The translations under genes and the position numbers were made by a program. The notes beneath the pieces were generated by a model. That model was not told where the DNA came from, searched no databases, and worked only from the letters and a program-made list of their open reading frames with translations. From Clostridiales bacterium (GTDB lineage Bacteria; Bacillota; Clostridia; Peptostreptococcales; NVVX01): DNA of 64,000 bases. Shown in pieces: positions 16,979 to 34,036 of this stretch. How positions within the stretch are numbered: position 1 is the first letter of the stretch; each line of letters begins with the position of its first letter. The stretch is from contig JAJOKP010000012.1 of the NCBI GenBank assembly GCA_021129775.1, forward strand, positions 280 through 64,279, written 5' to 3'.

Positions 16979-17002
16979 GCTTACACCCCCAAAAATTTGA
17001 TT

Positions 17003-17311
17003 TTATTCTACTGCATCAATGTACTCGATTAATTTCCTTGCAAATCCTATGTCTTTTATAGCTATGGTAGCTCTATCACTTTTTCCTATGTTATCGCCTA
17101 AAGTGCTCTTAGTACCATAGACTCTATAAGGTATGTTTCTAAACATCGTTTTGTTTTTAAATAGTTTCTTAGTATTAGCCGAAGCATCTTTTGCAACAAT
17201 TACTAAATAGACACTATTCTTTTTTACATGGATTAAGCAAGTACTTTCTCCTGTAACAACATTTCCTGATTTCATTGCGAATCCAAGTAAAGAAAAAATC
17301 TTATCTTTCAT
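17003..17311 (-). CDS. L7Ae/L30e family RNA-binding protein (YlxQ-like)
   Basis: 102 aa; LLGFAMKSGNVVTGE...LVIVAKDAS pattern; conserved position between ylxR and infB. Confidence 0.8.
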   Translation of the reverse strand: MKDKIFSLLGFAMKSGNVVTGESTCLIHVKKNSVYLVIVAKDASANTKKLFKNKTMFRNIPYRVYGTKSTLGDNIGKSDRATIAIKDIGFARKLIEYIDAVE

Positions 17312-17573
17312 TCTCTTTAATCTCCAATTCTAAATGGTTGTATACTTCTTCAGAAACTTGCTTTTTAAATACTCTGTTCAATGCTTTGGTTTTTCTGGCT
17401 TTTTCAAAGCAGGCGTTTGAGTAGCAGACATACGCTCCGCGTCCATCTTTTTTTCCTGTTTTATCAATAGTAACTTCTCCTAATTTATTGCAAACTATTC
17501 TAAGAAGTTCTCTCTTATGTTTCATTTCGTTACAACTAACACACTTTCTAAGTGGCGCTTTCCTCTTCTTCAT
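17301..17573 (-). CDS. YlxR/RnpM family (DUF448) RNA-binding protein
   Basis: 90 aa; PLRKCVSCNEMKHKRELLRIV...DGRGAYVC; directly downstream of nusA. Confidence 0.85.
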   Translation of the reverse strand: MKKRKAPLRKCVSCNEMKHKRELLRIVCNKLGEVTIDKTGKKDGRGAYVCYSNACFEKARKTKALNRVFKKQVSEEVYNHLELEIKENER

Positions 17574-18624
17574 CAGAACACCTCACTTTATCTACCACTT
17601 GTAATTCACTCTTTATGTCTATTTTCCATCCGGTTAACTTAGCTGCTAATCTAACATTCTGACCTTCTTTACCAATTGCCAGAGACAGCTGATAATCAGG
17701 TACTACAACCCTTGCAGCTTTGCCACCTTCATCAATCTTCACGGAAACAACCTTAGCTGGTCGTAGCGCATTTGAAATAAATATAGTTGAATCTTGACTA
17801 TATTCTATAATATCAATTTTTTCTCCTCTTAATTCTTCTACTACTGACTCCACTCTATTTCCTTGTGCTCCAACGCAAGCGCCTACAGCATCGACTTCTT
17901 GATTTTTTGATTCCACGGCAATTTTCGTTCTAGAGCCAGGTTCTCTTGATATACTCTTAATTTCTACTGTTCCTTCATGAATCTCGGGTACTTCAAGTTC
18001 GAATAATCTTTTAATTAGCCCTGGATGGGTTCTTGAAACAGCAATTTGAGGACCTTTAGTTGTGTTTTTCACTTCTGTTATATATGTCTTAATTCGATCC
18101 CCATGATTGTATTTATCACTAGACATTTGCTCGCTTTGCGCTAATATCGCCTCAATTTCCCCAATATTTACAAATACTACTCCTTTTGAAACCCTCGCCA
18201 CCTTTCCAGTAATAATATCAGACTCTCTATTTACAAACTCTTCAAATATTACTGTCCTCTCCGCTTCCCTAATTCTTTGGACAACGACTTGTTTTGCAGT
18301 TTGCGCAGCGATTCGTCCAAAATTGCTAGGCGTAACCTCATTCTCCACAATATCCTCAAGGCTATAATTAGGATTGATCTTTTTAGCTTCACTTAATGAC
18401 ACCTCCAGTAGCTCGTCCTCTACTTCTTCTACAATACGTTTTTGTGAATACACCCGAATTTCGCCCGTATCTTGATTAATATCCACCTTAACATTTTGTG
18501 ATGTGCCAAAATTTCTTTTATAACTTGAAATTAAGGCCGCTTCTATTGTTTCAATTAATATATCTTTTGGTATTCCTTTATCCTTTTGAATTTGTTCAAG
18601 AGCACTGATAAATTCAGCATTCAT
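17548..18624 (-). CDS. nusA: transcription termination/antitermination factor NusA
   Basis: 358 aa; N-terminal domain, S1 (GKVARVSKGVVFVNIGEIEAIL), and two KH domains (AVGACVGAQGNRV, LAIGKEGQNVRLA). Confidence 0.97.
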   Translation of the reverse strand: MNAEFISALEQIQKDKGIPKDILIETIEAALISSYKRNFGTSQNVKVDINQDTGEIRVYSQKRIVEEVEDELLEVSLSEAKKINPNYSLEDIVENEVTPSNFGRIAAQTAKQVVVQRIREAERTVIFEEFVNRESDIITGKVARVSKGVVFVNIGEIEAILAQSEQMSSDKYNHGDRIKTYITEVKNTTKGPQIAVSRTHPGLIKRLFELEVPEIHEGTVEIKSISREPGSRTKIAVESKNQEVDAVGACVGAQGNRVESVVEELRGEKIDIIEYSQDSTIFISNALRPAKVVSVKIDEGGKAARVVVPDYQLSLAIGKEGQNVRLAAKLTGWKIDIKSELQVVDKVRCSDEEEESAT

Positions 18625-18628
18625 TCCA

Positions 18629-19102
18629 TTATCCCTCCCTAAAATTTAATAGTAGTCGCGTTAATGCGACTTTTTCTTTTTCTATTTCAAACACATCTCC
18701 ATCTTCAAGTTTGATGCTTATTTTCCCTTCAATTAATCCAATTAATTCTCCTTCTATCATTTTATTGCCTTCAATTGGTTTATAAAGTTTCAGTTCAATG
18801 TTTTTACCTATGTATTTAGTAAAATCGCTTTCTTTCTTAAGCGGTCTATCTAAACCTGGTGATGAAACTTCTAAAAAGTAGCTTTCTTCAATGGAATCTA
18901 ATTCATCAAGTCTAGCACTTACTTGTTTGCTCACTAATTGACAATCATCAAGTGAAATTCCACCTTCTTTATCAATAAATACTCTTAAGTATCTACTCGG
19001 ACCTTCCTTTTTAAACTCAACATCAACTAGCTCAAAATTCTCAGCATTCGTTATTGGTTTAACAATTCCCTCTACTAATTTCTCTACCTTGTTTTGCGCC
19101 AC
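18629..19102 (-). CDS. rimP: ribosome maturation factor RimP
   Basis: 157 aa; ..YLRVFIDKEGGISLDDCQLVS..LEVSSPGLDRPLK; GTG start after AAGAGGAGGGG. Confidence 0.92.
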   Translation of the reverse strand: MAQNKVEKLVEGIVKPITNAENFELVDVEFKKEGPSRYLRVFIDKEGGISLDDCQLVSKQVSARLDELDSIEESYFLEVSSPGLDRPLKKESDFTKYIGKNIELKLYKPIEGNKMIEGELIGLIEGKISIKLEDGDVFEIEKEKVALTRLLLNFREG

Positions 19103-19374: not shown

Positions 19375-19770
19375 CTATTCTGCACTCTTTCTAAATACAA
19401 ATAAGTACTCATGTGCAATTAGGAGGAAGTTATAGTCTATACTCTTCTTGTACCAGAAACCTGCCGCCTTGCAATTATGTTGTTCTTTAACTATTGTTTC
19501 CTTAAGCACAAATCCTATGCCTAAAAATTTTTGCATCACTTTAAATCCTAATGGTAGCGTATGTTTGTTTCTTCTTGTGTCACCAATTAGAATATCACAA
19601 TATGATTCCTTTTTCAAAATCCGATGCGCTTCTTCTGCGACTTTTCCCATTTCTTTTACAAATTCCTCAATATCAAAGTGAGATAAATCACCTTTTAAAC
19701 CATCGCTATATTTAATAATATTAGCGTATGGTGGATGGGTACAAATAAGATCAATACTTTTATTACTTGG
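19375..19770 (-). pseudogene. 5'-truncated DNA methyltransferase fragment (paralog of the 20306-21052 gene)
   Basis: Reads PSNKSIDLICTHPPYANIIKYSDGLKGDLSHFDIEEFVKEMGKVAEEAHRILKK..KEQHNCKAAGFWYKKSIDYNFLLIAHEYLFVFRK. This is collinear with residues ~135 to the end of the neighbouring methylase. It lacks the FxGxG half and is preceded by TAA TAA. Confidence 0.8.
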
Positions 19771-19879: not shown

Positions 19880-20187
19880 ATATAGAATTATCAATCCCTA
19901 TAACGTATCCATCAGATCTCCCCGGGTAAGACTTCAATCTTTCTTTCCATATATCTGCCACATTTACTCCTATAGCTTTTCGTGTGACTGGACTTTGTTT
20001 TGTTTAGCAAACTAATCCAACTACAGTAAGCCTCAAATGTGATTCGTGTACCTCAGACCGGAAATTTGCTCATCAAGCTTCCTTCAGATTCGCAGTCACC
20101 CACGACACCCTTGCTCTTGGCTAACGCTTACGTCACCTTCAGCGTTCGGGACTTTCACCCTATAGATTGCACCCATGCCGGGCACAC
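19880..20187 (-). mobile_element. group II intron (class C / IIC) 5' fragment: domain I and start of domain II, with no IEP ORF and no domains V/VI
   Basis: Minus strand: GTGTGCCCGGCATGGGTGCAATCTATAGGGTGAAAGTCCCGAACGC..CAAGGGTGTCGTGGGTGAC..GAATCTGAAGGAAGC..AACAAAACAAAGTCC..CTTACCCGGGGAGATCTG. It is near-collinear with the Oceanobacillus iheyensis IIC intron 5' end as I remember it, and it begins 7 nt after a terminator hairpin. Confidence 0.75.
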
Positions 20188-20305: not shown

Positions 20306-21052
20306 CTATAAGTAAAAAATTATACTGTAAACTTTTTTCATGCCAATAACCAGTTCCTTTGCAATTGTGTTGCTCCTTAATACGATTTCTTTAAGCTCAA
20401 ATCCTACTTCCATAAATTCACTCATAACTTTGTTTCCTAATGGGATGATATAACCCTTTTTCCTAATATCCCCCATAAGTATTGCACAGTATTTGTTTTT
20501 CTTTAATACTCTATAACATTCCTTAGCCACTTTCTGTATTTCTTCTAAAAAAGACGCATCATCGTGTAGTGAAATATCTCCATCTATAAACTCACTATAC
20601 TTAATAACATTTGCATATGGGGGATGAGCACAAATTAAATCGATGCTTTCATTGTTTAAAAAACTCATCTTTCTAGCGTCTGCACAATAAATATTTGGTT
20701 CAAATTCACCATTATATTTAAAAGTTATATTGTTTTTGGCAATATTTATACTGCTTTGATTTATATCAATACCAATACCTTTTCTTTTCAATAATTTACA
20801 CTCTATCAATGTAGTACCTCCACCTAAAAATGGGTCTAATACAACATCATTTTTTTTCGAATACCTCAAAATTAAATTCCTTGGTATGTATGGTGACCAA
20901 TTTCCTCTATACTTACCATTATGAGTCGCCCAACTACCCCTATTAGGAAAGCTCCAAACTGATGAAATTTCTAGCTTAAAATCATTCGGAGCCCAATTAT
21001 TAGAATTACTATAACTCCCCTGTGAATCACAAATTTTAATAGGTTCCCCCAT
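20306..21052 (-). CDS. site-specific DNA methyltransferase (N4-C/N6-A type), C-terminus frameshifted
   Basis: Motifs VLDPFLGGGTT (AdoMet binding) and CAHPPYANVIKYS (catalytic). After KEIVL the paralog-like tail KEQHNCKGTGYWHEKSLQYNFLLIAHEYLYIFKKN* is read in the -1 frame and ends at 20271. A 1-nt loss near 20385 (TTAAGGAG where TTAAAGGAG is expected) would explain it. Confidence 0.8.
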   Translation of the reverse strand: MGEPIKICDSQGSYSNSNNWAPNDFKLEISSVWSFPNRGSWATHNGKYRGNWSPYIPRNLILRYSKKNDVVLDPFLGGGTTLIECKLLKRKGIGIDINQSSINIAKNNITFKYNGEFEPNIYCADARKMSFLNNESIDLICAHPPYANVIKYSEFIDGDISLHDDASFLEEIQKVAKECYRVLKKNKYCAILMGDIRKKGYIIPLGNKVMSEFMEVGFELKEIVLRSNTIAKELVIGMKKVYSIIFYL

Positions 21053-21182: not shown

Positions 21183-21406
21183 ATATATACTCTCCTAAAT
21201 ATATTTCAGTCAATTGAAAACTATTCATTCTATCTTGATAAATCCATAATCCAATTAATCCAACCTGCTATCGTCGAAGCACGTCTATAAAAAGTAGATT
21301 CTGCTTCAACATGAAGCAATTGTGATTCCTTCATAAAACTAACAATCGTTTCCTTTGATGGCATCTCATATGTCTTTAAATATTTCTTATGCGGCAAATA
21401 AAAAGC

Positions 21407-22525
21407 TCAATGTTCTAATACCCATTTAATAAATTTAAGGTTTCTTGACTTAATATTCATATTAAATAAACTCTTGCCTTTTGAACTGAGAAAATAATTT
21501 ACAACACCATTTTTTCTTTTTTTATCTACGAGTCCCAAATATCTAGCTGCATCAGTATAATAATTGGTTTGTCTTACATCAAAATCATATTTATACGTAA
21601 TTTCATCTCTGCTTAAAATATCATTTTCATGTAATATTTCACATAGACTAATAACTCTCTCAAAACTATCAGCTTGTGGAAATGGTATTCCTTGAGGCTC
21701 TTCAATCAATCTTGTCTCATTTGAAATTACCAATATATCATCTAAATGGATATCTTCTGGTTCAATTGAATAACTTTTTTGTTTAAGTAGTGCTAGCGAA
21801 TTATAGTTAGTAATATCTTCAAACACATATTCATAGAGACTGAAAATCCCATTTGAATATGTTAAGAATACTGGCTTTACTTGTTTAGTAACTTTCTTTT
21901 CCCACGATCTAAATGGATAATATAATTGTCGAATTAGAAAGTCATCTGAAATCGAGTTCTTTGCTTCAATTAATGTTAGCGAACTTAAACCTTCATAACC
22001 ACCATCTATTTCAACTTGAGAATTTTTTATGGACAACGGTATTATTTGTCCACTTCTCTGATTTCTTATGTTAAACTCAAATTGATTAGAACTCATTCTA
22101 CCATCAACAGTTGGCAATAATTCTTCATCCCCTATAAAATCGGCCAGCATCCCTGAAACATATGCTGTATTAATAGCAGTAGCTTCACTAGTTATGTTTT
22201 CAAAATCAATACTTTGTATATAATCAGGAAAGCTCAAACTATGTACCTCATGCCTTACTTTTTCAAACTTATGGTATGCTTCAAATCTTGCAATAGTATA
22301 CTCACCACGCGATATTGGTAATATTGACAGACCATTTTCTTCAAATAGCTGTGGTAAATTGCTTCTATGGTCAAATTTAGTCATTAATCTAGCTTCTCTA
22401 AATTCATTTATCTGTTCAGACTTAATATTCATATAACCATTTTTATCTACAGCATTCACAATATTATATTTTTGGAATAATAATTCCCAAACTTTATCAT
22501 TTCTAGTTTTTGGCTTGCTACTCAT
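21407..22525 (-). CDS. putative type II restriction endonuclease (PD-(D/E)xK), ended by an in-frame TGA; the frame stays open to 21230
   Basis: 372 aa; candidate catalytic VEIDGGYEGLSSLTLIEAKNS; 8-nt overlap with the upstream dam-type methylase. After TGA 21407-21409, 58 more sense codons follow (AFYLPHKKYLKTYEMPSKETIVSFMKESQLLHVEAESTFYRRASTIAGWINWIMDLSR*). Confidence 0.6.
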   Translation of the reverse strand: MSSKPKTRNDKVWELLFQKYNIVNAVDKNGYMNIKSEQINEFREARLMTKFDHRSNLPQLFEENGLSILPISRGEYTIARFEAYHKFEKVRHEVHSLSFPDYIQSIDFENITSEATAINTAYVSGMLADFIGDEELLPTVDGRMSSNQFEFNIRNQRSGQIIPLSIKNSQVEIDGGYEGLSSLTLIEAKNSISDDFLIRQLYYPFRSWEKKVTKQVKPVFLTYSNGIFSLYEYVFEDITNYNSLALLKQKSYSIEPEDIHLDDILVISNETRLIEEPQGIPFPQADSFERVISLCEILHENDILSRDEITYKYDFDVRQTNYYTDAARYLGLVDKKRKNGVVNYFLSSKGKSLFNMNIKSRNLKFIKWVLEH

Positions 22526-23354
22526 AATTTCTCACCAATACCTCATCAACTTCTCCACGTTTATCACCTTTCGAATTAATAGAACGCTTAGCTTTAATAA
22601 TCTCAACTTTGTAATCTTTATAAAGGTCAAGTATATATTCTGTTGCTGAATTTGATAACAGAAACTTGACTCCCCTTGAATCAAGTTTGTCACATTGAAT
22701 TTTCAATCTTTCTTGCTCTTTTCTATCAAACCCACCTTTTGCATAACCAGTAAAATTAGAACTGTCTGAGACGGGATCATAAGGTGGGTCAAAATAAACA
22801 AATGTACCTTTTCTAATCCCTTTTAAAGCTGATTCAAAATCACCACTTTTAAAAAGTATATTAGAATTATTGAAATATTTACTAACAGCTCTAAAATTGA
22901 TTTCATTTACAATATTTGGATCTTTGTACTTGCCAAAAGGTGAATTGAACTGACCTGCCATGTTAACTCTAAATAACCCATTGTAACAGGTCTTATTTAA
23001 ATAATGTATTCGTGCCGCCCTTTCTACATTGGATAAATTAGAATATGTTTTTTCATTTCTATCTAAAGAACGTGTCTCATAAAAAAATTCTTCTTCATTC
23101 CTGTATTCTTTTAATTCATTCACTAATTCATCCACATTGTATTTTATTACACAATACAAATTAATTAATTCATCATTGATATCATTTATTATCGCCTTTT
23201 TAGGTTGTAATTCAAACAAAACTGCTCCACCACCAACAAATGGCTCATAATATGTAATATCTCTTTTAGGTATATATTTTTTTATTTCAGGTAGTAATTG
23301 TCGCTTACCACCAACCCATTTAAGCACAGGTGTCACAAGTTTATTATACTTCAT
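22518..23354 (-). CDS. Dam-family DNA adenine methyltransferase (MethyltransfD12 type)
   Basis: 278 aa; LKWVGGKRQLLPEI, EPFVGGGAV (motif I) and VYFDPPY (motif IV). The gene is intact. Confidence 0.9.
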   Translation of the reverse strand: MKYNKLVTPVLKWVGGKRQLLPEIKKYIPKRDITYYEPFVGGGAVLFELQPKKAIINDINDELINLYCVIKYNVDELVNELKEYRNEEEFFYETRSLDRNEKTYSNLSNVERAARIHYLNKTCYNGLFRVNMAGQFNSPFGKYKDPNIVNEINFRAVSKYFNNSNILFKSGDFESALKGIRKGTFVYFDPPYDPVSDSSNFTGYAKGGFDRKEQERLKIQCDKLDSRGVKFLLSNSATEYILDLYKDYKVEIIKAKRSINSKGDKRGEVDEVLVRNYE

Positions 23355-23439
23355 GCAAATTCCTCACTTTTCAAAAGACATATATACAATATAACTCATT
23401 TTTAAGAATAGTAACATATGTTCCCATAAAATTATTGAT

Positions 23440-23706
23440 TTATATTTTTACCTGTCCGCATAATATCTGTGGTGAAATATTTGCTTCCTCACCTCTGCAA
23501 GGAGTACAGTAACTCTGTATACCATCTGGATTATTTATTGTTCCTCGTTTCTCGGATGTTCCAAATAATTCATCTAGATAATAAACATGTTCATCACCAT
23601 TTTCAATCGAACAATTTGGACAAGATTTATAATTTTTTCTATGAATAGTCGCCCTTTGTGATTCTTTCAATTTCAATCCACAAGCCTGACATATTTCATT
23701 TTTCAT
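23440..23706 (-). CDS. zinc-ribbon protein of unknown function
   Basis: 88 aa, from ATG 23706, 10 nt after GGAGGG. Translation: MKNEICQACG..(18)..SCPNCS...YCTPCR. It heads the R-M cassette, where a controller protein often sits. Confidence 0.5.
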   Translation of the reverse strand: MKNEICQACGLKLKESQRATIHRKNYKSCPNCSIENGDEHVYYLDELFGTSEKRGTINNPDGIQSYCTPCRGEEANISPQILCGQVKI

Positions 23707-24076
23707 GGTATACATTCCCTCCAAATAATAATATATTTTTCGCATCACATATTATTGAACAAAATCACTACCTCTATAATTTCCAAAAGCAAACTATAAA
23801 ACATACAAAAATGGAAACTATTCATGTTAATATTATCATATTTTACTTCAAACCACAATTGCATATTTTATCTGTAACACAGTTTGCGATAAAAAATTCT
23901 TCACTGCGTAACGCTACACCACCTGCTATTGAAAGTAAAAAATCCGACAAAATATTCACCTCGTTATCTCAAATTCAAATTTATACTCAGCAAAGAGCAT
24001 TTTGTTTTCCTTAAATCTTGACTGCATTATAATAATTGAAACATCAGAAGTAATACACCTATCAACCTGTTAGTTT

Positions 24077-24333
24077 TCACTCATCAAGATTTTTTCGCAA
24101 ATTCAACCCATTCTTCTCTGAGAGATACCTTGTTTTTTTCCACCCACTATTCAACCATTCTTTCGCTTGTGAATGGGTTATATCGTTGGCCCACCATGAG
24201 TTTCCACTGATAAAAGAATAGGCCGAAGACGGAAGTTTATCTTTAGTTACAGCTTCTATTTTGGCAAAAGTCGGTCGAATGCTTTCTTGACTTAATCCCT
24301 CTAAATAAACTCCTAACAATCTATATTTCCCAT
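24077..24333 (-). CDS. small WWAN-motif protein (DUF7662-like; family name from memory), with a start-proximal frameshift or non-ATG start
   Basis: Reads ..GKYRLLGVYLEGLSQESIRPTFAKIEAVTKDKLPSSAYSFISGNSWWANDITHSQAKEWLNSGWKK... The only ATG served by an RBS (AAGGAAGG, 10 nt, ATG at 24333) is 1 nt out of frame. ATGGGGAAATAT in place of ATGGGAAATAT would restore MGKYRLL. Confidence 0.5.
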
Positions 24334-24356
24334 TTATATCATCCTTCCTTAATCAC

Positions 24357-24884
24357 TTAAATATTTTCGTTTGTGCCAAGTATATTCTCGAACATAAAAT
24401 CTTTATGTAAATCGTTCCATTCTTTGATACTTAAAACTTTAAAATCATCAATTAAGTTTGTTGAAAGTCTTGGTAATTTTTTTTGAATTTCAAAGGGTAA
24501 TTTCTTTTTGATTTTACCTGCAAGTCTTTTTCTTATAATTGGGTCTGCAAGAGCTGATTCTAGTACATAGTAGTATCTAAAAAACTTTTTCCTCAATTCA
24601 TCAATAGCATTCAAATAGATAATACTATCGTAATATTTACGCGCAATTTTTCGGTAATGTTCCTCTGAAGTTATTTTACTATCGAACGTATCAGGATACT
24701 TTGCACCATCAATCATTGAGTTTTTATACTCCATAAATACGACCTCGTCTTCTAACTCAAGTACTACATCAACGTCACATAACAAACCCCCCAATTCTGA
24801 GTAAAAGCTGTTTAGTTCAATAAGGTTAATTGCTTTATTACAGTTGATTTTATAATTTTTATTTTCTTCAATAAATATGCTCAT
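24357..24884 (-). CDS. hypothetical protein with a PD-(D/E)xK-like nuclease motif
   Basis: 175 aa; CDVDVVLELEDEVVFMEYK (D39..E52-x-K54) followed by a helical C-terminal half. It starts 32 nt after the ATPase stop. Confidence 0.55.
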   Translation of the reverse strand: MSIFIEENKNYKINCNKAINLIELNSFYSELGGLLCDVDVVLELEDEVVFMEYKNSMIDGAKYPDTFDSKITSEEHYRKIARKYYDSIIYLNAIDELRKKFFRYYYVLESALADPIIRKRLAGKIKKKLPFEIQKKLPRLSTNLIDDFKVLSIKEWNDLHKDFMFENILGTNENI

Positions 24885-24916
24885 CTTCAGTGCTCCCCTT
24901 TAAATCACTTTATTAA

Positions 24917-25934
24917 TCAATCCCCTAAATTTTTGTCTAATACTTCTTCCATTAAAGCATCAAATGCTTTAATAATAGGATTTTCTTTCAATTCTCTAAA
25001 ATTATCACACTTCTCATGATTTACGTATCCGTTCTTGTCTTTAAATAAAGAATAGTGGGCTATTGTATGTTCTTTTTGAGCTTTTACTTCAAAGTATTTT
25101 GCTAAAATATAATCATGTGTTGAGATAAAAATTTGCACTCCTTCTTTTTGTAGTTCAAGTAATATTTCTACTATTATTGGTATTACGACTGGGTTTATAT
25201 GTGCTTCAGGCTCATCCCAAAATAGAACTGAACCTTTTTCTAACACGCCATTTTCAATTAGCTTCCACAATAATGCTAGTTTTCTCCAACCTTCAGCAAT
25301 GAGTTGAAATTCTATTTTCTCTTCATTTCCTGAGTTTAAATAAAATTTTTCATTTTCAATAGATAGAATACCCGAAGTTATCTTCTTAATCGTATCTAAA
25401 TATCTTTTTCGTTTTGCTTGCCTTTTCCCTTTTCTAACATCAATTTTAACAGCTGCAATTATATCTAAGTAAGTTTCGTCAAAATCAATAACGTTTTTTA
25501 AATAAGCCGATTCAAATTGATATGCATTTGTTAAAATATCTTTAGCTGGGATATATGTACTAATCAAATCTTTATTTTTCTTCTCCCATTCACTTTCTCC
25601 ACTCACAAGAGCATCCCATTTTTTTGTATGATTAGTAAACTGTGTTTTTATACAAACATTTTTTTGAATGTACCACTATTAACGTACTTCCTGCAACTTT
25701 ATTTTTACTAAGAAATCTATTTATAGATGATCTGTCAGGCTTTAATACTTTAACAAGTTTATGTGAAAACATAACATCTTCTCTTGCAGTTTGACATGCA
25801 GAGTATAATATCTTCATTATGTGCGTTTTGCCAGTTCCATTTTCACCAATAAAAATATTTATGCCGTCTGTAAAATCCAGTTCAATTTTTTTAAATACTG
25901 TAAAATTCTCTAATCTCAATCCTGTTATCGACAT
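24917..25934 (-). pseudogene. AAA15/ABC-type (SMC-like) ATPase split into two ORFs by a frameshift
   Basis: The N-terminal ORF carries Walker A FIGENGTGKTH. The C-terminal ORF carries a signature-like LIAEGWRKLALL, Walker B SVLFWDEPEAHINP and ISTHDY. Both frames are open only in 25635-25675, which contains A7 and A5 runs. RBS GGAGG lies before ATG 25934. Confidence 0.8.
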
Positions 25935-26007
25935 ACTAAACCTCCAAATAAAATTATTCCCATGTCCCCTCACATAGCACTATCTTTTATTAGCACATAT
26001 TTACACT

Positions 26008-26036
26008 ATTAAACCAAATAAAATGGTATTGCGCAA
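26008..26036 (-). promoter_or_regulatory. candidate sigma-A promoter for the ATPase module
   Basis: Minus strand: TTGCGC, 17 nt, TTTAAT, about 70 nt upstream of ATG 25934. The background is AT-rich. Confidence 0.25.
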
Positions 26037-26211
26037 TGAATCTAGAATTTTAGGTATTACTACTTCACAGTTTTTCAGTTTACTTGTATTATATTATGTA
26101 GCCTCAACTGTTTCTTTCTATTTCGCTTGCCGTCATCAAGAATGTTTCTCATCTTAGTATATGAAGAGAGAGACAGGCATTCTACCTTGTCCCTCTTCAG
26201 TAGATATCATA

Positions 26212-28575
26212 TTACCTTATCGGACAAACTCCACTTTCACATTCTGACGAATCGGACAAGTCAAATTCTTCTCCACTTTCGTATCTGCCAATTAGTGACG
26301 GATTAAAAGGTTTCATTAAATCTAGTCTTCTTTTATATTCTTGTTCGCTAATGTTTTCATAAGGTAAATCCTCATAAAAATTATTTACATGAGAAATAAA
26401 AGATACAGCAACTATTTTATCCCAATTATTATATACAAATTCTTCTACTTCTGACCATTCATGATCTCTGACATGAACAGTTATTGAAGTATTGTGGTCT
26501 ACAAAACATTCTTGGTACATTAAATATCTTTCAAGCTGTTCAATTGCCGATACATCATTCTTAGTCTTTCCTTCTGGTGACTTACAAGGAAACTCAATAA
26601 AAACTGTATTTGCTTTGCCCTTGTCTTCAAATACTGGATACTCAAGTTTTCTACAAACGTTAACTAATGGGTCAGTATCAGAAATTCGAATTCTCCTTAC
26701 ATAGTATGGACTATGTGCGTAATGTATTCCACTTGATACTTGCGGTAAATTCGACTGAGTGCCTTCTGGTTTGATAGCAGTAGTTCTTTTGGACCTAGGA
26801 AGTCCTAAGCTGTCTGCATAACTATCTGCTTCCATCTTAACTACTTCTTTTAGCTCTTTCAGAAGTTCTCTCTCTTGCTCTCTTTTCATATTAGTGGCGT
26901 TTACCATATCAAGCCATCCCATGAAGCTAACACCAAGTAGTCTATTTTCCTTTTGAACTGTATCCCATTTTGGTAGCTCTAGGGTTACGCATGTCATTCT
27001 ATATGCAACTCTAGTTGCTAATTGAAATGCTCTCTTTACTCCTGCATTATCTAACTTGCCTTCTGTTACAAATCCCATTACGTTTACGGAAGTTAAATTG
27101 CACAAGCCTCTATCTCTTAGTGCTGCCTCACCACAAGGATTTAGCCCAATGTCTTCATTTGTAGCTTCTGGCATGCGTTCTAGCAGCGCAACTTTGTTTA
27201 TCCATGCGGGCTCACCACTATATCGCATTTTTTCTATTTGCCAATGTAATTTTTCTCTCGTGGGTCTTTTAGTATACATTATTGAATTATTGCTCATTTC
27301 TCTGTGAGTTATTTCAAGATTTTTAATCCACTTGCCTTCTACCTCTTTATACAAATCAGCCTTTGCATTAATTGATTCAATATCATTCGGGCTAATAATA
27401 ATCATTTGCGCAGTTCTTCTAACTCCGCCAGATACAACATTTTCACCAATGGATGTACAAATGTCCAACACGTTAATTGGCTTTAATTTTATATTCTTGC
27501 CTTTTTGAAATCTTAAACCGCTTTTGATTATTTTATCGATTTTAACAAACATGGTCTTAAGTGATTCATGCCCTGAAGCAGTGCCTCCCATTTTCTTAAG
27601 AACTTCTCCTTTTGGTCTTACATTGTTGTAATTAAAAACAATGGTTTTAATGTTTCTATATTTATGTGAATGCAAAATGTTGAAATATGTTTCTATGGCT
27701 GACATCCAACCTTCTTTAGAATCTCCTACTACAATCCTTGCAAGGTTATTGTTTTTAAATATAATTGAAGTACTATCCTCTCTCTCTTCAATAGGAATTG
27801 ATAAATATTCTTCGTGAATAATATCGTAGTCAATCCTTACATTAGGGAGTTTATCTACATCTTCTTCTAAAATTCTTAGACCTACGCCTGCTCCAACCAT
27901 AGATAGATAAAAAATTTCTGAAAAGGCTTCAAAAGAGTCCATAATTTTAAAAGCACAGTTGAAGTTTGCCATCGGATATTCATAAGATACAGGAGTATTT
28001 CCAATCCAGTTTGTTCTACCACTCATAAATTGACGAAGATAAAAAATATTGTTATACAGTTCTTCTGCTTCTTCTCGTGTAGTTGTAGGTACTAAAGAAC
28101 AATTATAATCAACTATTCTTCTGACTACCTCGTGCCAAAACTCTCTCCTTCTATATTCAGGCAAATATCTTGAATATGTTCTATAAAAAACAAATGTACC
28201 AATTGCACTCATTGGGTTAGGCAAGCGTTTATACCGACTGATAAATTTATCACTTATTAGTTTTTCTTCGTCTCCTTTTTTAAATTTTCTTTCTTTTTGT
28301 TTTTGATCTCTATGCAATATGTAATTTATAGCCACATCTTGTCTTGGGCTACTCATTAATTTCTTTACAACTAGGTCTTGTATTTCTTCAATTTCAGTAA
28401 TTTCTTTTGTCAACTCGTCAGCTATCTCATCAGCAATTTTTTCTGCTAAGTTAAAGTCAGCTCCCATATCGGTTAATCTCATAGCGCTTAAAATAGCTTT
28501 TGCTATTTTTGTTTTGTCAAAAGAAACTATTTTTCCTGTTTCACCTTTTTTAGGTCTTTTTCTTACCATTACCAT
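26212..28575 (-). CDS. nrdJ: adenosylcobalamin-dependent ribonucleoside-triphosphate reductase (class II, monomeric RTPR type) with an N-terminal ATP-cone
   Basis: About 787 aa; ATP-cone VRKRPKKGETGKIVSFDKTKIAKAI; active-site NPCGEA; C-terminal Cys pair CESGVCPIR. It resembles the L. leichmannii-type RTPR. Confidence 0.85.
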   Translation of the reverse strand: MVMVRKRPKKGETGKIVSFDKTKIAKAILSAMRLTDMGADFNLAEKIADEIADELTKEITEIEEIQDLVVKKLMSSPRQDVAINYILHRDQKQKERKFKKGDEEKLISDKFISRYKRLPNPMSAIGTFVFYRTYSRYLPEYRRREFWHEVVRRIVDYNCSLVPTTTREEAEELYNNIFYLRQFMSGRTNWIGNTPVSYEYPMANFNCAFKIMDSFEAFSEIFYLSMVGAGVGLRILEEDVDKLPNVRIDYDIIHEEYLSIPIEEREDSTSIIFKNNNLARIVVGDSKEGWMSAIETYFNILHSHKYRNIKTIVFNYNNVRPKGEVLKKMGGTASGHESLKTMFVKIDKIIKSGLRFQKGKNIKLKPINVLDICTSIGENVVSGGVRRTAQMIIISPNDIESINAKADLYKEVEGKWIKNLEITHREMSNNSIMYTKRPTREKLHWQIEKMRYSGEPAWINKVALLERMPEATNEDIGLNPCGEAALRDRGLCNLTSVNVMGFVTEGKLDNAGVKRAFQLATRVAYRMTCVTLELPKWDTVQKENRLLGVSFMGWLDMVNATNMKREQERELLKELKEVVKMEADSYADSLGLPRSKRTTAIKPEGTQSNLPQVSSGIHYAHSPYYVRRIRISDTDPLVNVCRKLEYPVFEDKGKANTVFIEFPCKSPEGKTKNDVSAIEQLERYLMYQECFVDHNTSITVHVRDHEWSEVEEFVYNNWDKIVAVSFISHVNNFYEDLPYENISEQEYKRRLDLMKPFNPSLIGRYESGEEFDLSDSSECESGVCPIR

Positions 28576-28608
28576 AAGTGTCACGCTCCTTGTTATCTCC
28601 TATATGTA

Positions 28609-31600
28609 TTAAAACAGCGACAGCTGATTAGTTTCGGATAAACCATCTAAACAACCATGAATTTTTAATGCCTCTATTGCCGTTTTTGTTGCTTTTGTCC
28701 TTTGTATTATATCCTCTATTGAAATGAACTCGCTTTTTTTAGCTTCTTCTTGTATTTTAATTGCAACATTGTGTCCCAGTCCTTCTAATGTTTTTAAAGG
28801 AGGTAATAGTTTTCCATCAACGATTAAAAATTTTGCGGCATCTGATTTATATAGATTTACTTTTAGCAAGGTAATATCTCTCAGAAGCATTTCCAGTGCA
28901 ACTTCTAACACTGTTGAAATGTTTTTTTCTTTAGCAGTCAATTTCTTTCTTTGATTCCCTAAATTCAATTGTTTTTCTTTCTCTTCTAATTCTTTGAGTT
29001 TTGAGAATACAAACTCTTTGCCTTTAATAATAAAATCAACATCAAAATCTTCTGCTTTTGTAGTAAAATACGTAGCATAAAAAGCTTCTGGGTGATGAAC
29101 TTTGCAATATGCTATTCTAAACGACATCATAACATACGCTGCTGCATGCGCTTTAGGGAACATATACATTATTCTATTGCATGAATCAATATACCATTTT
29201 GGAACCTCGTGTTCTCTCATTAATTCTTCATCACAGGCAGATAATCCTTTTCCTCTACGTACGTTTTCCATAATATTAAATGCTGATACTGATGGCAGTC
29301 CCTTTTTACTTAAATAGTTGATAATATCATCTCTTGTCGATATTACATCTTTAAGTCCAGCTATGCCTTCTTTAACAAGTTCTTGAGCGTTATTAAGCCA
29401 CACATTGGTTCCGTGAGACAATCCACTAATTCGTATTAATTCAGCTAGAGTACTAGGCTTAGTTTCAAGTAGCATTTGCCTTACAAACTTAGTTCCAAAT
29501 TCGGGGATTCCAAGCGTGCCTACTTTAACGTCAAATCTTTCATCTTCTATCTCTAGTACATCTATTCCTCTAAACAAACTGAGTGTTTTAGCATCATCAA
29601 GTGGAATATCAGTTGGTTTTATATTGATAAGGTCTTCTAGCATTCTTAATATACTTGGCACATCATGACCTAGAATGTCTAGCTTTAATAGTCTTCCACT
29701 AATTGAATGGTAGTCAAAATGAGTCGTAATTACTCCCGATTTAGGATCGTTAGCGGGATATTGTATCGGTGTAAATTCGTGTATATCATTACCTTCTGGT
29801 ACTATCATTACACCACCAGGATGTTGTCCTGAAGTTCTCTTAACACCTGTACATCCTAAGGTCAATCTATCAGTTTCTGATTTTGATTTATAAATTTGCT
29901 TTTTTTCTTGAAATTTTTTAACAAATCCATAGGCAGTTTTCTGTGCAATCGTGCCAATAGTTCCAGCTCTAAAGACTTTATCTTTTCCAAATAGTTCTTC
30001 TGTATATTTATGTGCCTCACCTTGATACTCACTAGCAAAGTTTAAGTCAATATCAGGTTCTTTATCTCCTTCAAATCCAAGAAAGACTTCAAAAGGAATA
30101 TCATGCCCCTCTTTGTAAAATTGTGTATCGCATCTCGGGCAATTTTTGTCTGGCATATCAACTCCAGAACTATAGGGGCTGTCCTTAATAAACTCAGAAT
30201 ATTTACAATTAGAGCAAATATAGTGAGGAGGCAAAGGATTTACTTCTGTAATATCGCTCATTGTAGCTGCAAATGAAGAACCTACAGATCCCCTAGAGCC
30301 AACTAAGTAGCCATTTTCTTCTGATTTTTTTACAAGCTTTTGTGCAATTACGTACATAACTGCATAGCCATTACTAATTATTGAGTTAAGCTCTTTATCT
30401 AATCTATCTTTAACTTTTTGAGGTAATTGCTCCCCATATATTCTTTTTGCTTTTTCATAGCAAGTTTTTTTTAACTCTTCGTCAGAACCTTCGATTTTGG
30501 GGGTAAAAGTACCTTCTGGAACTGGCATTAATTCTTCTATCATTGCATTAATCTTTTGTGGATTGCTCACAACTAATTCAAATGACTTTTCTTTTCCTAA
30601 GTAGTTGAATTCTTGAATCATTTCCGCAGTTGTTCTTAGATATAGTGGCGATTCAGCATCTGCATCACTAGGTCCTTTACCTAACATAAGAATTCTTCTA
30701 AAAACCTCATCTTTTTTGTCTAAAAAATGTACATCGCCTGTAGCAATTACTGGAAGATTTAATCTGTCTCCTAATTCAACTATCTTTTTGTTTATTCTTT
30801 TTAAATCATTGATATCCTTTACTGCCCCTTTGTTAACAAGGTATTTGATATTAACTAATGGCTGAATTTCTAAATAGTCAAAGTATTTCGCTATTTCAAT
30901 TATATCACACTCTAACCTAGATGTTAATTCACTCTGATATAGTGCCCCTTGTGCGCAAGCAGAACCAAGGATTAGCCCTTCTCTATGTTTATCTAATTCA
31001 CTTTTCAATATTATGGGCTTTCGGTAAAAATTATCCATATGTGAAACAGATACGAGTTTATATAAATTCTTTAATCCTTCATAATTTTTCGCTAAAATTG
31101 TTATATTATACGGTCTTATTTTTTTAAATTCAAATTCTTTTATTAGTTTTTCATTAGCATCATATATACTAGAAATATCCCTGTCCTTCATTAAGCCAAT
31201 AAAATAAACAAATAATTTTGCAGTTGCTGTAGCATCGTCAAGGGCTCTATGGTGATTTTCAATTTTAATGTTTAGTTTTTTTGCAATTGTCTTTAGCTTA
31301 AAAGTTTTTAAATCTGGCATAAGGACTCTTGCTAACTTGATCGTATCAATAAGTAAATTATTCACTGTGATTCCAAGTTTTTTAGCATTCTCTCTTATAA
31401 ATCCAATATCAAAATTTACATTATGGGCTACTAAAGGCGAGTCCCCAATAAAACTAATAAATTTTGGTAATACTTCTTCTATTTTAGGGGCATCTTTTAC
31501 CATGTCATCAGTAATTCCTACTAGCTCAACTAAATCTGCAGGTATACTTACTTCTGGATTAATTAACTGGGAAAAACTGCCTACAATAATCGCATTTTTT

Positions 31601-32967
31601 ACTCTCACAGCAGCTAATTCTGTAATTTTATTACTAACCGCTGAAAGTCCTGTTGTCTCTATATCAAATATTACAAACTCATCTTCAAATAGATAATTCT
31701 CTGTACATTCTATTAAAGGCTCCTCATCATTTACTATATATCCTTCAAGTCCATATATGATTTTTACACCGTGTTTTTTACCCGCTATGGCAGCATCTGG
31801 GAAAGCTTGTACTACACCGTGATCTGTTATTGCAATAGCTTTATGCCCCCAATCACTAACTCTCTTAACTAAATCTTTAACATTACAAATCCCGTCCATA
31901 GATGACATTTGAGTATGCGCATGTAATTCAATTCTTTTTTCATCGCTATCATCTGTACGTATTTTTTTAGCAACAGCATTTATATCCGATACTATGATTG
32001 TATTTTCATTTATATATTTATCATATACTACTTCTCCTTTTATTCTCAAACATTGTCCTATTTTGAAATAACTTTCAATATTTTCTTTTTGCTTCTTCCT
32101 TTCAAACAATTTCGTTACAATTGTATCTTCATAGTCGGTTATATTCAAGGTGTATAGTTTTTTCCCACTACTTAATATCTTAGTCTCTTGTAGTGCAACA
32201 TCACCTTCTATAATAATCCTATGGTCATCTTGCGATATATTAATAATACGAGTAATTTCTCCGCTTATCTTCTTGCCGATTATTACTGAACTGTCATTTG
32301 AAGAAGTAGTTTCATTTTTAAGTTTTCGCTTATATTTGTTTTGCGATTTTTTGCCTTCATTGCCAGTTTTAGCTACAGCTGATGCTTCGTTTTCCTTTGC
32401 TATACTCTTTGCTAATTTTGCTGATTCTTCATCTTTTTGTTTGCTATAATTCTTTACTTTTTCTTCACTACGCCTGTCTAAAACGATTCTACATTTTATC
32501 TTCTGACCAAATTCAGCAAAAAAATAATTTTCTATTCTAGTTGGAAGTTTTCTCTCTTCTGATTTTTGCACAACTATACTCTCAGCTACATTTATGATTA
32601 ATTCATTGTTTTCTAGTTGCCATGATATAGTGCTTGCATCTTTATAAAATGATGGGAAAAATTCCTGAAAAAAGAAAATAATATTATCATTGTTTAACTC
32701 AATCATTTCTGTGATTGTACTAAACTTAATGTCATAAGTAAAATTAAATTTCGGATATTCACTCAACTGTAAAGATTCTTGAAGTAATTCTGATATTACT
32801 CTAAGTTTTTGCAGTTTTATAACTTGTTCAGAGTATAAAAATATCTCTATTTTTTTTTTCTCTTTAAAGTATTTAACCCTAGTCATATCGCAATCACAAT
32901 CTAAAAACTCATCTATTTTTAATTGTTCTAGAAACTTATTAAATTTCATTACCTTACTTGGATTCAT
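28609..32967 (-). CDS. polC: DNA polymerase III PolC-type alpha subunit
   Basis: About 1452 aa; PHP domain (ELHAHTQMSSMDG), DEDDh exonuclease (FVIFDIETTGLS..H..FD) and a polymerase core. Start chosen at MNPSKVMKFNKF, after GAGGGGATGGGG. Confidence 0.96.
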   Translation of the reverse strand: MNPSKVMKFNKFLEQLKIDEFLDCDCDMTRVKYFKEKKKIEIFLYSEQVIKLQKLRVISELLQESLQLSEYPKFNFTYDIKFSTITEMIELNNDNIIFFFQEFFPSFYKDASTISWQLENNELIINVAESIVVQKSEERKLPTRIENYFFAEFGQKIKCRIVLDRRSEEKVKNYSKQKDEESAKLAKSIAKENEASAVAKTGNEGKKSQNKYKRKLKNETTSSNDSSVIIGKKISGEITRIINISQDDHRIIIEGDVALQETKILSSGKKLYTLNITDYEDTIVTKLFERKKQKENIESYFKIGQCLRIKGEVVYDKYINENTIIVSDINAVAKKIRTDDSDEKRIELHAHTQMSSMDGICNVKDLVKRVSDWGHKAIAITDHGVVQAFPDAAIAGKKHGVKIIYGLEGYIVNDEEPLIECTENYLFEDEFVIFDIETTGLSAVSNKITELAAVRVKNAIIVGSFSQLINPEVSIPADLVELVGITDDMVKDAPKIEEVLPKFISFIGDSPLVAHNVNFDIGFIRENAKKLGITVNNLLIDTIKLARVLMPDLKTFKLKTIAKKLNIKIENHHRALDDATATAKLFVYFIGLMKDRDISSIYDANEKLIKEFEFKKIRPYNITILAKNYEGLKNLYKLVSVSHMDNFYRKPIILKSELDKHREGLILGSACAQGALYQSELTSRLECDIIEIAKYFDYLEIQPLVNIKYLVNKGAVKDINDLKRINKKIVELGDRLNLPVIATGDVHFLDKKDEVFRRILMLGKGPSDADAESPLYLRTTAEMIQEFNYLGKEKSFELVVSNPQKINAMIEELMPVPEGTFTPKIEGSDEELKKTCYEKAKRIYGEQLPQKVKDRLDKELNSIISNGYAVMYVIAQKLVKKSEENGYLVGSRGSVGSSFAATMSDITEVNPLPPHYICSNCKYSEFIKDSPYSSGVDMPDKNCPRCDTQFYKEGHDIPFEVFLGFEGDKEPDIDLNFASEYQGEAHKYTEELFGKDKVFRAGTIGTIAQKTAYGFVKKFQEKKQIYKSKSETDRLTLGCTGVKRTSGQHPGGVMIVPEGNDIHEFTPIQYPANDPKSGVITTHFDYHSISGRLLKLDILGHDVPSILRMLEDLINIKPTDIPLDDAKTLSLFRGIDVLEIEDERFDVKVGTLGIPEFGTKFVRQMLLETKPSTLAELIRISGLSHGTNVWLNNAQELVKEGIAGLKDVISTRDDIINYLSKKGLPSVSAFNIMENVRRGKGLSACDEELMREHEVPKWYIDSCNRIMYMFPKAHAAAYVMMSFRIAYCKVHHPEAFYATYFTTKAEDFDVDFIIKGKEFVFSKLKELEEKEKQLNLGNQRKKLTAKEKNISTVLEVALEMLLRDITLLKVNLYKSDAAKFLIVDGKLLPPLKTLEGLGHNVAIKIQEEAKKSEFISIEDIIQRTKATKTAIEALKIHGCLDGLSETNQLSLF

Positions 32968-32989
32968 TAAATCGCCCCATCCCCTCGCT

Positions 32990-34036
32990 TTACATTTTCT
33001 CAATTTCATATAATAGCACATTTAGCGCTTCGTTTTTTTTTACTTTCTTAATAAGTTTTCCATTTTTAAACAATATAAAACCAGATGCTCCACCTGCAAT
33101 GCCAATGTCAGCATCTTTAGCTTCTCCTGGTCCATTTACAGAACATCCCATTATAGCTACTTTTATAGGCTTTTTAATATCCCGAAATCTTTCATTAGCT
33201 TCATTTGCCAAGGAAATTAGATCAACTATACATCTACCGCAGGTGGGACATGAAATTATAGTTATTTCATCCCTAATAATGTCTAATGATTTTAATATCT
33301 GTCTCCCTACTTTTATTTCCTCTACTGGATTACCAGTAAGCGAAACTCTAATTGTGTCGCCAATTCCTTGCAGTAACAAATGTCCTATCCCTATTGCCGA
33401 TTTAATTGTTCCACTCCAAGTAGTCCCTGCTTCCGTAACTCCAATATGAAGTGGATAATCAACTTCATTAGAGATTATCTCACATGCATCCACAGTAAGT
33501 TTAATGTCACTTGCTTTTAACGAAATAAGTATTTTATCGTAATTAAGATCTTCTAAAATACTAACTTGTCTAATTGCGCTCTCAACCATTGCTTCAGCTG
33601 TAGGTCCTCCGTATTTTTCAAGCAACTGCTTCTCAAGCGAGCCTGCATTTACACCAACACGTATTGGTATATTTTTCTCTTTTGCGGCTACAACAATTTC
33701 TTTAACTTTATTGTCGTTTCCAATATTACCTGGATTAAGTCTTAGAGCATCAACATTTTGCTTTATTGCTTCTAAAGCTAGTTTATAGTTAAAATGAATG
33801 TCAGCTACAAGAGGAATTGAAATTTGAGATTTAATATTTGCAAGTTGATATGCAGACTCCATTGTTGGCACTGCAACTCTTACAAAATCGCATCCTGCCT
33901 TCTCTAACTCTTTGATTTGTTTCACTGTATCCTCTACATATATAGGGTCAAAAGTTGTCATAGATTGAACAGAGATAGGATTATTCCCACCTATCCTAAC
34001 TTTGCCTAGTTGCACTACTTTTGTTTTTTTTCTCAT
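32990..34036 (-). CDS. ispG: 4-hydroxy-3-methylbut-2-en-1-yl diphosphate synthase
   Basis: RKKTKVVQLGKVRIGGNNPISVQSMT...; C-terminal 4Fe-4S cysteines ISCPTCGRC..GCSVNGPGE. Confidence 0.93.
   Translation of the reverse strand: MRKKTKVVQLGKVRIGGNNPISVQSMTTFDPIYVEDTVKQIKELEKAGCDFVRVAVPTMESAYQLANIKSQISIPLVADIHFNYKLALEAIKQNVDALRLNPGNIGNDNKVKEIVVAAKEKNIPIRVGVNAGSLEKQLLEKYGGPTAEAMVESAIRQVSILEDLNYDKILISLKASDIKLTVDACEIISNEVDYPLHIGVTEAGTTWSGTIKSAIGIGHLLLQGIGDTIRVSLTGNPVEEIKVGRQILKSLDIIRDEITIISCPTCGRCIVDLISLANEANERFRDIKKPIKVAIMGCSVNGPGEAKDADIGIAGGASGFILFKNGKLIKKVKKNEALNVLLYEIEKM

Follow-up and report, generated by a model that had tools for sequence, protein, structure and literature searches.

A degraded copy of the HEC-02 defence pair with a lineage-specific, degraded DUF7662 gene in a Clostridiales bacterium

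Genes and lesions at the locus

We examined three co-directional genes in a 64,000-nt stretch of contig JAJOKP010000012.1 from a Clostridiales bacterium (the whole stretch is called the window below). The initial annotation had described them as a possibly new antiphage module made of a split ABC-type ATPase gene (gene 1), a gene for a 175-aa partner protein (gene 2) and a small gene with a WWAN motif (gene 3). All three genes and all the motifs listed for them were present (Table 1), and the proposed functional class also stood, i.e. an ABC/AAA15-type ATPase with a small PD-(D/E)xK-type effector in a defence island, analogous to PARIS, Septu and Gabija. Genes 1 and 2 matched models of the defence system HEC-02 (Hma-embedded candidate 2), and gene 3 matched the DUF7662 family.

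Table 1. Positions of the three genes, their lesions and the neighbouring island features in the window (ORF, open reading frame).
Feature	Position	Strand	Remarks
Three co-directional genes	24077–25934	minus	from the ORF list
Gene 1, N-terminal fragment of HEC-02 ABC ATPase	25632–25934	minus	100-aa ORF; Walker A GENGTGKT at residues 30–37
A7 homopolymer with +1-nt frameshift splitting the ATPase	25659–25665	minus	A6 in L033
Gene 1, C-terminal fragment of HEC-02 ABC ATPase	24917–25606	minus	229-aa ORF from GTG
Gene 2, HEC-02 partner	24357–24884	minus	intact, 175 aa; carries CDVDVVLELEDEVVFMEYK; D37/D39...E52-x-K54
Gene 3, DUF7662 gene remnant	24077–24333	minus	longest in-frame ORF 24319–24077, TTG start, 80 aa
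A7 run of gene 3 with second 1-nt deletion	24133–24139	minus	last ~18 codons shifted
Four-cysteine zinc-ribbon ORF	23440–23706	minus	88 aa; between gene 3 and Dam-family methylase
Dam-family methylase	22518–23354		TIGR00571, 1.3e-89
DUF6996/DUF6997/DUF7226 protein, presumed endonuclease	21407–22525	minus	21230–22525 when the ORF after its in-frame TGA is included
Second N6/N4 methylase, fragments	20306–21052 and 19375–19650	minus	
Group II intron RNA	19931–20105		Rfam RF02001 D1–D4, 131.8 bits; between the two methylase fragments

The break in the ATPase gene that the initial annotation had noticed was mapped to an A7 run. Past this frameshift the N-terminal fragment terminates at a premature TAA, while in the frame of the C-terminal fragment homologous coding sequence reaches upstream to about position 25658. 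The latter fragment carries a signature-like AEGWRK motif (LIAEGWRKLALL), the Walker B motif LFWDEPE (VLFWDEPEAH) and the H-loop STHD, and the ATPase motifs were invariant in our alignment of homologues (A1). Removal of one A from the run gave a 338-aa ATPase that aligned without gaps to the intact ATPases, likewise 338 aa long, of Crassaminicella indica and of a Marinisporobacter metagenome-assembled genome, with 63–64% identity. A pairwise alignment with the nearest relative, locus L033, placed one extra nucleotide at window position 25658.

Gene 2 starts 32 nt past the ATPase stop, as first reported, and has its own ribosome-binding site. The proposed D39/E52/K54 core belongs to a larger set of residues that were invariant across 22 homologues of the partner, i.e. 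E7, N8, D37, D39, E52, K54 and N55, together with an RKY-DS motif.

The gene 3 ORF matched Pfam DUF7662 (PF24698) with E=3.9e-6 and 27.0 bits (gathering cutoff 26), over model positions 7–58. The repaired 83-aa version reached 35.1 bits over model positions 1–70 of 72, and the intact orthologue in L033 (85 aa) 65.1 bits. A full-library phmmer search with gene 3 returned 634 representatives, and the best 150 were all DUF7662. The patterns KY..L..YL, LPSSAY, WWAN and H..A..WL..GW were present in the gene, which follows the family consensus KY.PL..YL...LTF..IE.I.G..LP.SA....WWAN...H.QA.AWL.AGW....V.F.R.

The intact gene of about 85 aa that had been described does not exist in the window, where gene 3 is doubly frameshifted. 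Its ancestral ATG is kept at 24333–24331, but it is out of frame and reads MGNIDC*, because one nucleotide is missing directly after it (ATG GG|AAA TAT, compared with ATG ACT AAA TAT in L033). We had also considered an ATA codon as the start where homologues have ATG, and dropped it after the comparison with L033 had shown that the real ATG is retained. The invariant K-Y precedes the sole in-frame canonical start, the TTG. The second deletion lies in an A-run near the end of the gene, where the alternative frame VSLREEWVEFAKKS* matches L033 VSFSEEWVEFAKIL.

Finally, the candidate promoter proposed for the module was not borne out, since the 19 promoter-like sites that we found in 23300–26300 were not above the expectation from shuffled sequences (15.5 ± 3.6). 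No terminator was found in the same interval.

Genes 1 and 2 as a HEC-02 pair

Searches with hidden Markov models (HMMs) from PADLOC assigned both genes to one named system, with matches well above what chance would give. The repaired ATPase matched the HEC-02 model PDLC04213 with E=1.3e-120 over model positions 1–334 of 337, and its two fragments matched the same model separately (N-terminal part, E=5.8e-30, positions 1–91; C-terminal part, E=4.1e-84, positions 113–334). The 175-aa partner matched the HEC-02 nuclease-partner model PDLC04226 with E=1.1e-51 over model positions 3–166 of 171. Among the PADLOC models the next-best named system for the repaired ATPase was AriA (E=3.5e-20), and Pfam gave generic families for the ATPase, namely AAA_15 for the N-terminal part (E=3.6e-12) and AAA_21 for the C-terminal part (E=2.1e-13). 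PHROGs and NCBIfam contained no family for gene 2 or gene 3. Because these searches place genes 1 and 2 in a named and tested system, the suggestion of a distinct or undescribed antiphage system fails.

HEC-02 consists of an ABC ATPase and a NERD-like PD-(D/E)xK protein, and was detected inside Hma, BREX, DISARM and type I restriction-modification (R-M) loci (Payne et al., bioRxiv 10.1101/2024.01.29.577857). The tested system came from Dickeya dianthicola NCPPB 3534; in E. coli it reduced plaquing by several coliphages, for at least two of them by orders of magnitude, its defence required both genes, its partner has a (D/E/Q)xK motif, and the NERD-like label comes from the authors' structural comparison of the Dickeya partner (Payne, Hughes, Fineran & Jackson, bioRxiv 10.1101/2024.01.29.577857).

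The window pair resembles this system in architecture, with an ABC-clade ATPase of ~340 aa followed immediately by a PD-(D/E)xK/NERD-like protein of ~170 aa, both of them matching HEC-02 HMMs. The tested Dickeya ATPase matched the same model PDLC04213 at 2.2e-83 and shared 28% identity with the window ATPase over nearly its full length (E=5e-43), and PDLC04229 was matched by the nuclease partners of both the window and Dickeya. The two systems also differ. The window partner falls in the sub-model PDLC04226 and has only the catalytic core in common with the Dickeya partner, the window ATPase is frameshifted, and an extra DUF7662 gene follows downstream.

The subunit labels in PADLOC-DB v2 were inconsistent: PDLC04146 is named HEC-02B yet is an ATPase model (344 positions), and PDLC04145 is named HEC-02A yet is a nuclease-partner model (170 positions). 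In the later models PDLC04213–04229, A is the ATPase and B the nuclease.

We retrieved about 70 related loci through homologues of the 175-aa partner, from a genome collection and from metagenomes (45 loci). In all genome-collection loci that extend far enough upstream, and in 44 of the 45 metagenome loci, the partner was directly preceded by a full-profile ATPase ORF; the ATPase–partner pair is thus a conserved unit. The junction between the two genes was typically 0–4 nt or overlapping in these relatives, unlike the spacer of the window pair, which in addition contains a ribosome-binding site. Several relatives lay within BREX and type I R-M loci, the setting in which HEC-02 was discovered. 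In particular, the pair lay inside BREX between PglX and PglZ in three loci (L008, L009 and L035), beside a type I HsdR gene and a BrxB fragment in L006, and beside RloA/RloB-like and GmrSD-like genes in L003. In Crassaminicella indica (L002, 3300–4721) a group II intron reverse transcriptase (RVT_1 and GIIM) immediately precedes the pair, and the window island also has a group II intron.

This distribution bears on whether the pair serves defence at all. A toxin–antitoxin or AbiE-like module, or a housekeeping repair unit made of a RecF/SMC-like ATPase and a nuclease, would agree with the Pfam matches to AAA_21 (termed 'putative AbiEii toxin'), AAA_23 and SMC_N, and with the NCBIfam matches to RecF and Rad50 at the P-loop. 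However, these generic matches are confined to the P-loop at the N-terminus or to the Walker B region and lie far under the family cutoffs, while HEC-02-specific models scored better by tens of orders of magnitude. The pair is also patchily distributed, with several copies in or beside BREX and type I R-M systems, and its pseudogenisation has been tolerated here and in L081, L086 and L094. We therefore regard a role outside defence as highly improbable.

Membership in HEC-02 is backed by the HMM matches, the order of the genes and the conserved motifs. The other ATPase–nuclease systems to which the module had been compared share some of its features and lack others. PARIS (AriA and AriB) is also a two-gene combination of ABC-ATPase sensor and nuclease effector, and AriA models matched the ATPase with E of about 1e-17 to 1e-20, though these scores were about 100 orders of magnitude weaker than those for HEC-02. 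The window effector is of the PD-(D/E)xK type, and neither Pfam nor PADLOC detected AriB, DUF4435 or TOPRIM in the three window proteins. Septu (PtuA with the HNH protein PtuB) and the PtuAB of retron Ec78 share the AAA_15-type N-terminus of the ATPase, but the similarity to PtuA was restricted to ~40 residues around the P-loop, and no HNH match was found in genes 2 or 3 with Pfam and PADLOC. Gabija and other OLD-family systems, as well as AbiL (RloA/RloB-like), likewise couple an ABC ATPase to a nuclease in defence islands, and the RloA/RloB-like pair adjoins the HEC-02 pair in L003. However, GajA matches spanned residues 1–50 only, and the module contains no TOPRIM and no GajB helicase; AbiLi matches reached 1e-7 to 1e-13 as against 1e-120 for HEC-02, and Pfam found no RloB/AbiLii (PF13707) partner.

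The D...ExK motif of the 175-aa partner was confirmed. Its AlphaFold2 model had a predicted local distance difference test (pLDDT) score of 86.7 and a predicted template modelling (pTM) score of 0.84, and the top Foldseek matches of this model were PD-(D/E)xK enzymes, all of them weak (best E=0.039 in PDB and 0.004 in BFVD). They included the nickase Nt.BspD6I, EcoO109I, BstEII, FokI and arenavirus endonucleases, as well as phage entries named 'restriction endonuclease' or 'PD-(D/E)XK'. Because no structural match in PDB or BFVD reached E<1e-3, the predicted fold is consistent with a PD-(D/E)xK nuclease, not proof of one. When the nuclease profile was searched against the sequences of solved structures, no match appeared at E<=10. 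The solved ATPases closest by sequence were PtuA proteins, matched around the P-loop only, and there is no solved structure of a HEC-02 protein.

By analogy with PARIS, Septu and the OLD-family ATPase–nuclease systems, an oligomer of the ATPase would sense an infection cue via its variable inserts and, through ATP binding or hydrolysis, would activate or release the nuclease. D37/D39, E52 and K54 would form the metal site at which the nuclease then cuts nucleic acid.

Decay of the locus and the place of the DUF7662 gene

Samples from ENA, JGI and Logan yielded seven assemblies with 99.7–100% identity to the window, from which they differed by a few single-nucleotide polymorphisms. The A7 run of the ATPase gene was identical in 5/5 other assemblies spanning the site, and none of those spanning it had the A6 variant. 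The A-run lesion at the end of gene 3 was identical in 6/6 assemblies spanning it, and both gene 3 lesions recurred in all covering assemblies. A sequencing or assembly error behind the homopolymer frameshifts was ruled out, because identical lesions recur across independent assemblies. The initial annotation had treated the locus as a sequence to be repaired; since gene 3 is also doubly frameshifted, we read it instead as a decaying copy.

The ratio of non-synonymous to synonymous substitution rates (dN/dS) between the window and L033 was 0.14 for gene 1, 0.12 for gene 2 and 0.24 for the repaired gene 3. All three genes have therefore been under purifying selection for most of their divergence, until recently. 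Other degraded HEC-02 copies, with a truncated ATPase and/or a split partner, were seen in L081/L092, L086, L087, L090 and L094, and also in L020 and L032, and decay of HEC-02 appears common across loci.

In the window the pair is not intact, the ATPase being split by the +1-nt frameshift. One extra A, by dividing the ATPase into pieces of 100 aa and 229 aa, would most likely switch the system off, and to judge from the sequence the frameshift has most likely abolished HEC-02 function in this genome. A module that is still active, in which the two ATPase polypeptides assemble or slippage at A7 restores the frame in a fraction of products, like a switchable, phase-variable system, seems quite unlikely to us. 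The frameshift does fall within a homopolymer, the nuclease gene is intact, both ATPase fragments are open to their ends, and the A7 allele is stable across the seven assemblies. However, all assemblies spanning the site have A7 and A6 was never seen, and A7 is below the length usually tied to efficient transcriptional slippage or phase variation, which are linked to tracts of about 8–9 nt or more. Restoration of the frame would require a +1 shift, whereas A-rich heptamers promote −1, and the C-terminal fragment has only a GTG, without a clear ribosome-binding site. Two further lesions in gene 3 and an in-frame stop in the neighbouring restriction endonuclease (REase) gene fit general decay, and all other intact loci have a single ATPase ORF of about 310–350 aa.

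The intact nuclease gene beside a broken ATPase hints that the HEC-02 nuclease is non-toxic without the ATPase. Provided that the nuclease is expressed, its harmlessness would weakly favour an ATPase that acts as activator or sensor over one with a PARIS-like sequestering role.

Gene 3 can be described mainly through its family. Its structural model (pLDDT 81.8) has the layout H-beta-H-H...H-beta-beta with a beta-hairpin wing, and its Foldseek matches were non-significant (E>=0.4) and mostly MarR and CodY winged helices; on this model the DUF7662 domain is probably winged-helix-like. We rejected the R-M-proximal repressor RptR (PDB 9R2Z) as an identity for gene 3: RptR is a compact four-helix all-alpha repressor (PMC12255303), the gene 3 model has the beta-hairpin wing, and there was no RptR among the 50 structural matches listed. 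DUF7662 proteins occur in a stand-alone form of 80–90 aa that starts with M-x-x-K-Y, in fusions with CBS, DUF4268, HEPN_Swt1, DUF6884, HTH_17, XRE-HTH, VapB, NERD, GIY-YIG and kinase domains, and in arrays of up to about 10 copies, with 7–10 tandem repeats in some proteins of 769–1314 aa (repeat and fusion proteins among the homologues P0025–P0028). A few multidomain members match the PADLOC candidates PDC-S11 and mad1. Unlike the family, the window copy has no in-frame ATG and its C-terminal strand is shifted. A literature search for DUF7662 found no papers.

Of the three-gene module proposed at first, the trio itself was found in this strain and in L033, but DUF7662 was absent from the other related loci surveyed. 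L033 holds an intact set, whose proteins measure 338 aa (ATPase), 169 aa (partner) and 85 aa (DUF7662). Its block of homology with the window (78% nucleotide identity) sets in some 20 nt before gene 1 and breaks off exactly at the stop of gene 3, past which the DNA is unrelated; the L033 sample belongs to the same study series as L001. No DUF7662 gene was found within 3–4 kb of the pair in the other genome-collection or metagenome loci, nor in the next-closest relatives, L034 (74% nucleotide identity) and L035. The small genes that follow the pair in L003 and L006 had no Pfam matches that would make them DUF7662 relatives, and two stand-alone DUF7662 genes elsewhere were in unrelated contexts. 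The linkage of DUF7662 to the pair is thus limited to this lineage and its nearest relative. In L033 the trio is followed by a gene for a 233-aa protein (1941–2642) with a sub-threshold match to the PIN-domain family PIN-TPR-GreABC (2.9e-5, 24.8 bits, cutoff 27.8), which may be another defence gene.

The DUF7662 protein could instead be a working component, i.e. a DNA-binding regulator or sensor adaptor in a three-gene variant that forms a functional unit in this lineage. HEC-02 would then have a sub-variant with three components, the third being a small winged-helix-like protein with a regulatory or adaptor function, intact in L033 and decayed here. The intact trio of L033, the homology block that runs from just before gene 1 to the gene 3 stop, and the dN/dS of the repaired gene agree with such a role. 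So do the fusions of DUF7662 elsewhere to HEPN_Swt1, NERD, GIY-YIG, VapB and XRE-HTH, some of which match PDC-S11 or mad1. Nevertheless, DUF7662 is missing from all other HEC-02 loci examined, the next-closest relatives L034 and L035 included, the tested Dickeya system functions as two genes, and the stand-alone DUF7662 genes examined sit in unrelated contexts. The trio is confined to two lineages whose samples are related, and one acquisition is enough to account for it. We consider the working-component role unlikely, and gene 3 is most likely accessory or hitch-hiking, not a core component.

Taken together, we give a probability of roughly 0.78 to the reading of genes 1 and 2 as a Clostridia-type HEC-02 copy, most likely off here, with the DUF7662 gene as an accessory or hitch-hiking gene outside the core. 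Several points weigh against it. The antiphage evidence for HEC-02 is one preprint with heterologous E. coli assays of a Dickeya homologue, and similarity to the tested Dickeya partner is remote, with hhalign aligning the catalytic core only, at a probability of 0.4%. The 175-aa partner matched zero Pfam families at E<=1, NERD (PF08378) included, and its structural matches were weak, as said above. The sensing and activation mechanism is drawn entirely from analogy, and the system could retain some activity through A7 slippage or if the two ATPase fragments assemble. Finally, the homology block that ends at the gene 3 stop, together with purifying selection, means that DUF7662 may be more than a bystander.

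The eroding island and what the locus means

The island, which comprises the R-M genes and the HEC-02 locus, is inserted between polC with the class II ribonucleotide reductase gene (26212–33021) and the rimP-nusA-ylxR-L7Ae-infB operon (14933–19102). In Firmicutes the polC/ribonucleotide reductase side and the rimP-nusA-infB operon are normally close neighbours.

The adjacent R-M cassette that had been pointed out is present, with the Dam-family methylase next door. The presumed endonuclease has an in-frame TGA at 21407–21409; DUF7226 positions 1–83 lie before this stop, and positions 91–141 in the 55-aa ORF that continues the frame after it. Either the REase has been inactivated by a nonsense mutation, with the Dam-family methylase beside it intact, or this is a case of read-through or recoding. 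The position of the group II intron RNA suggests that an ORF-less intron interrupts the second methylase gene, and Rfam reported no match to domain V/VI in the window. The zinc-ribbon ORF was kept in all strain-level assemblies and matched phrog_7682 (unknown function) at 4e-8, with a further weak match to an HNH endonuclease PHROG; its product could be an R-M controller. The island is eroding.

The locus is thus not a new system: it belongs to a known defence family, is degraded, and carries an add-on gene that is lineage-specific and degraded as well. An apparently undescribed ATPase–nuclease locus was already covered by the PADLOC HEC-02 models and carries little weight beyond annotation, and frameshifts such as these would conceal such a locus from protein-based defence finders. 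It also provides a natural allele, fixed across samples, in which the ATPase is broken and the nuclease intact. The occasional linkage of DUF7662 to HEC-02 is one data point on a common domain with many fusions typical of conflict systems. If a third-component role of DUF7662 were true, it would be the first functional context for this widespread, promiscuous and otherwise uncharacterised domain.

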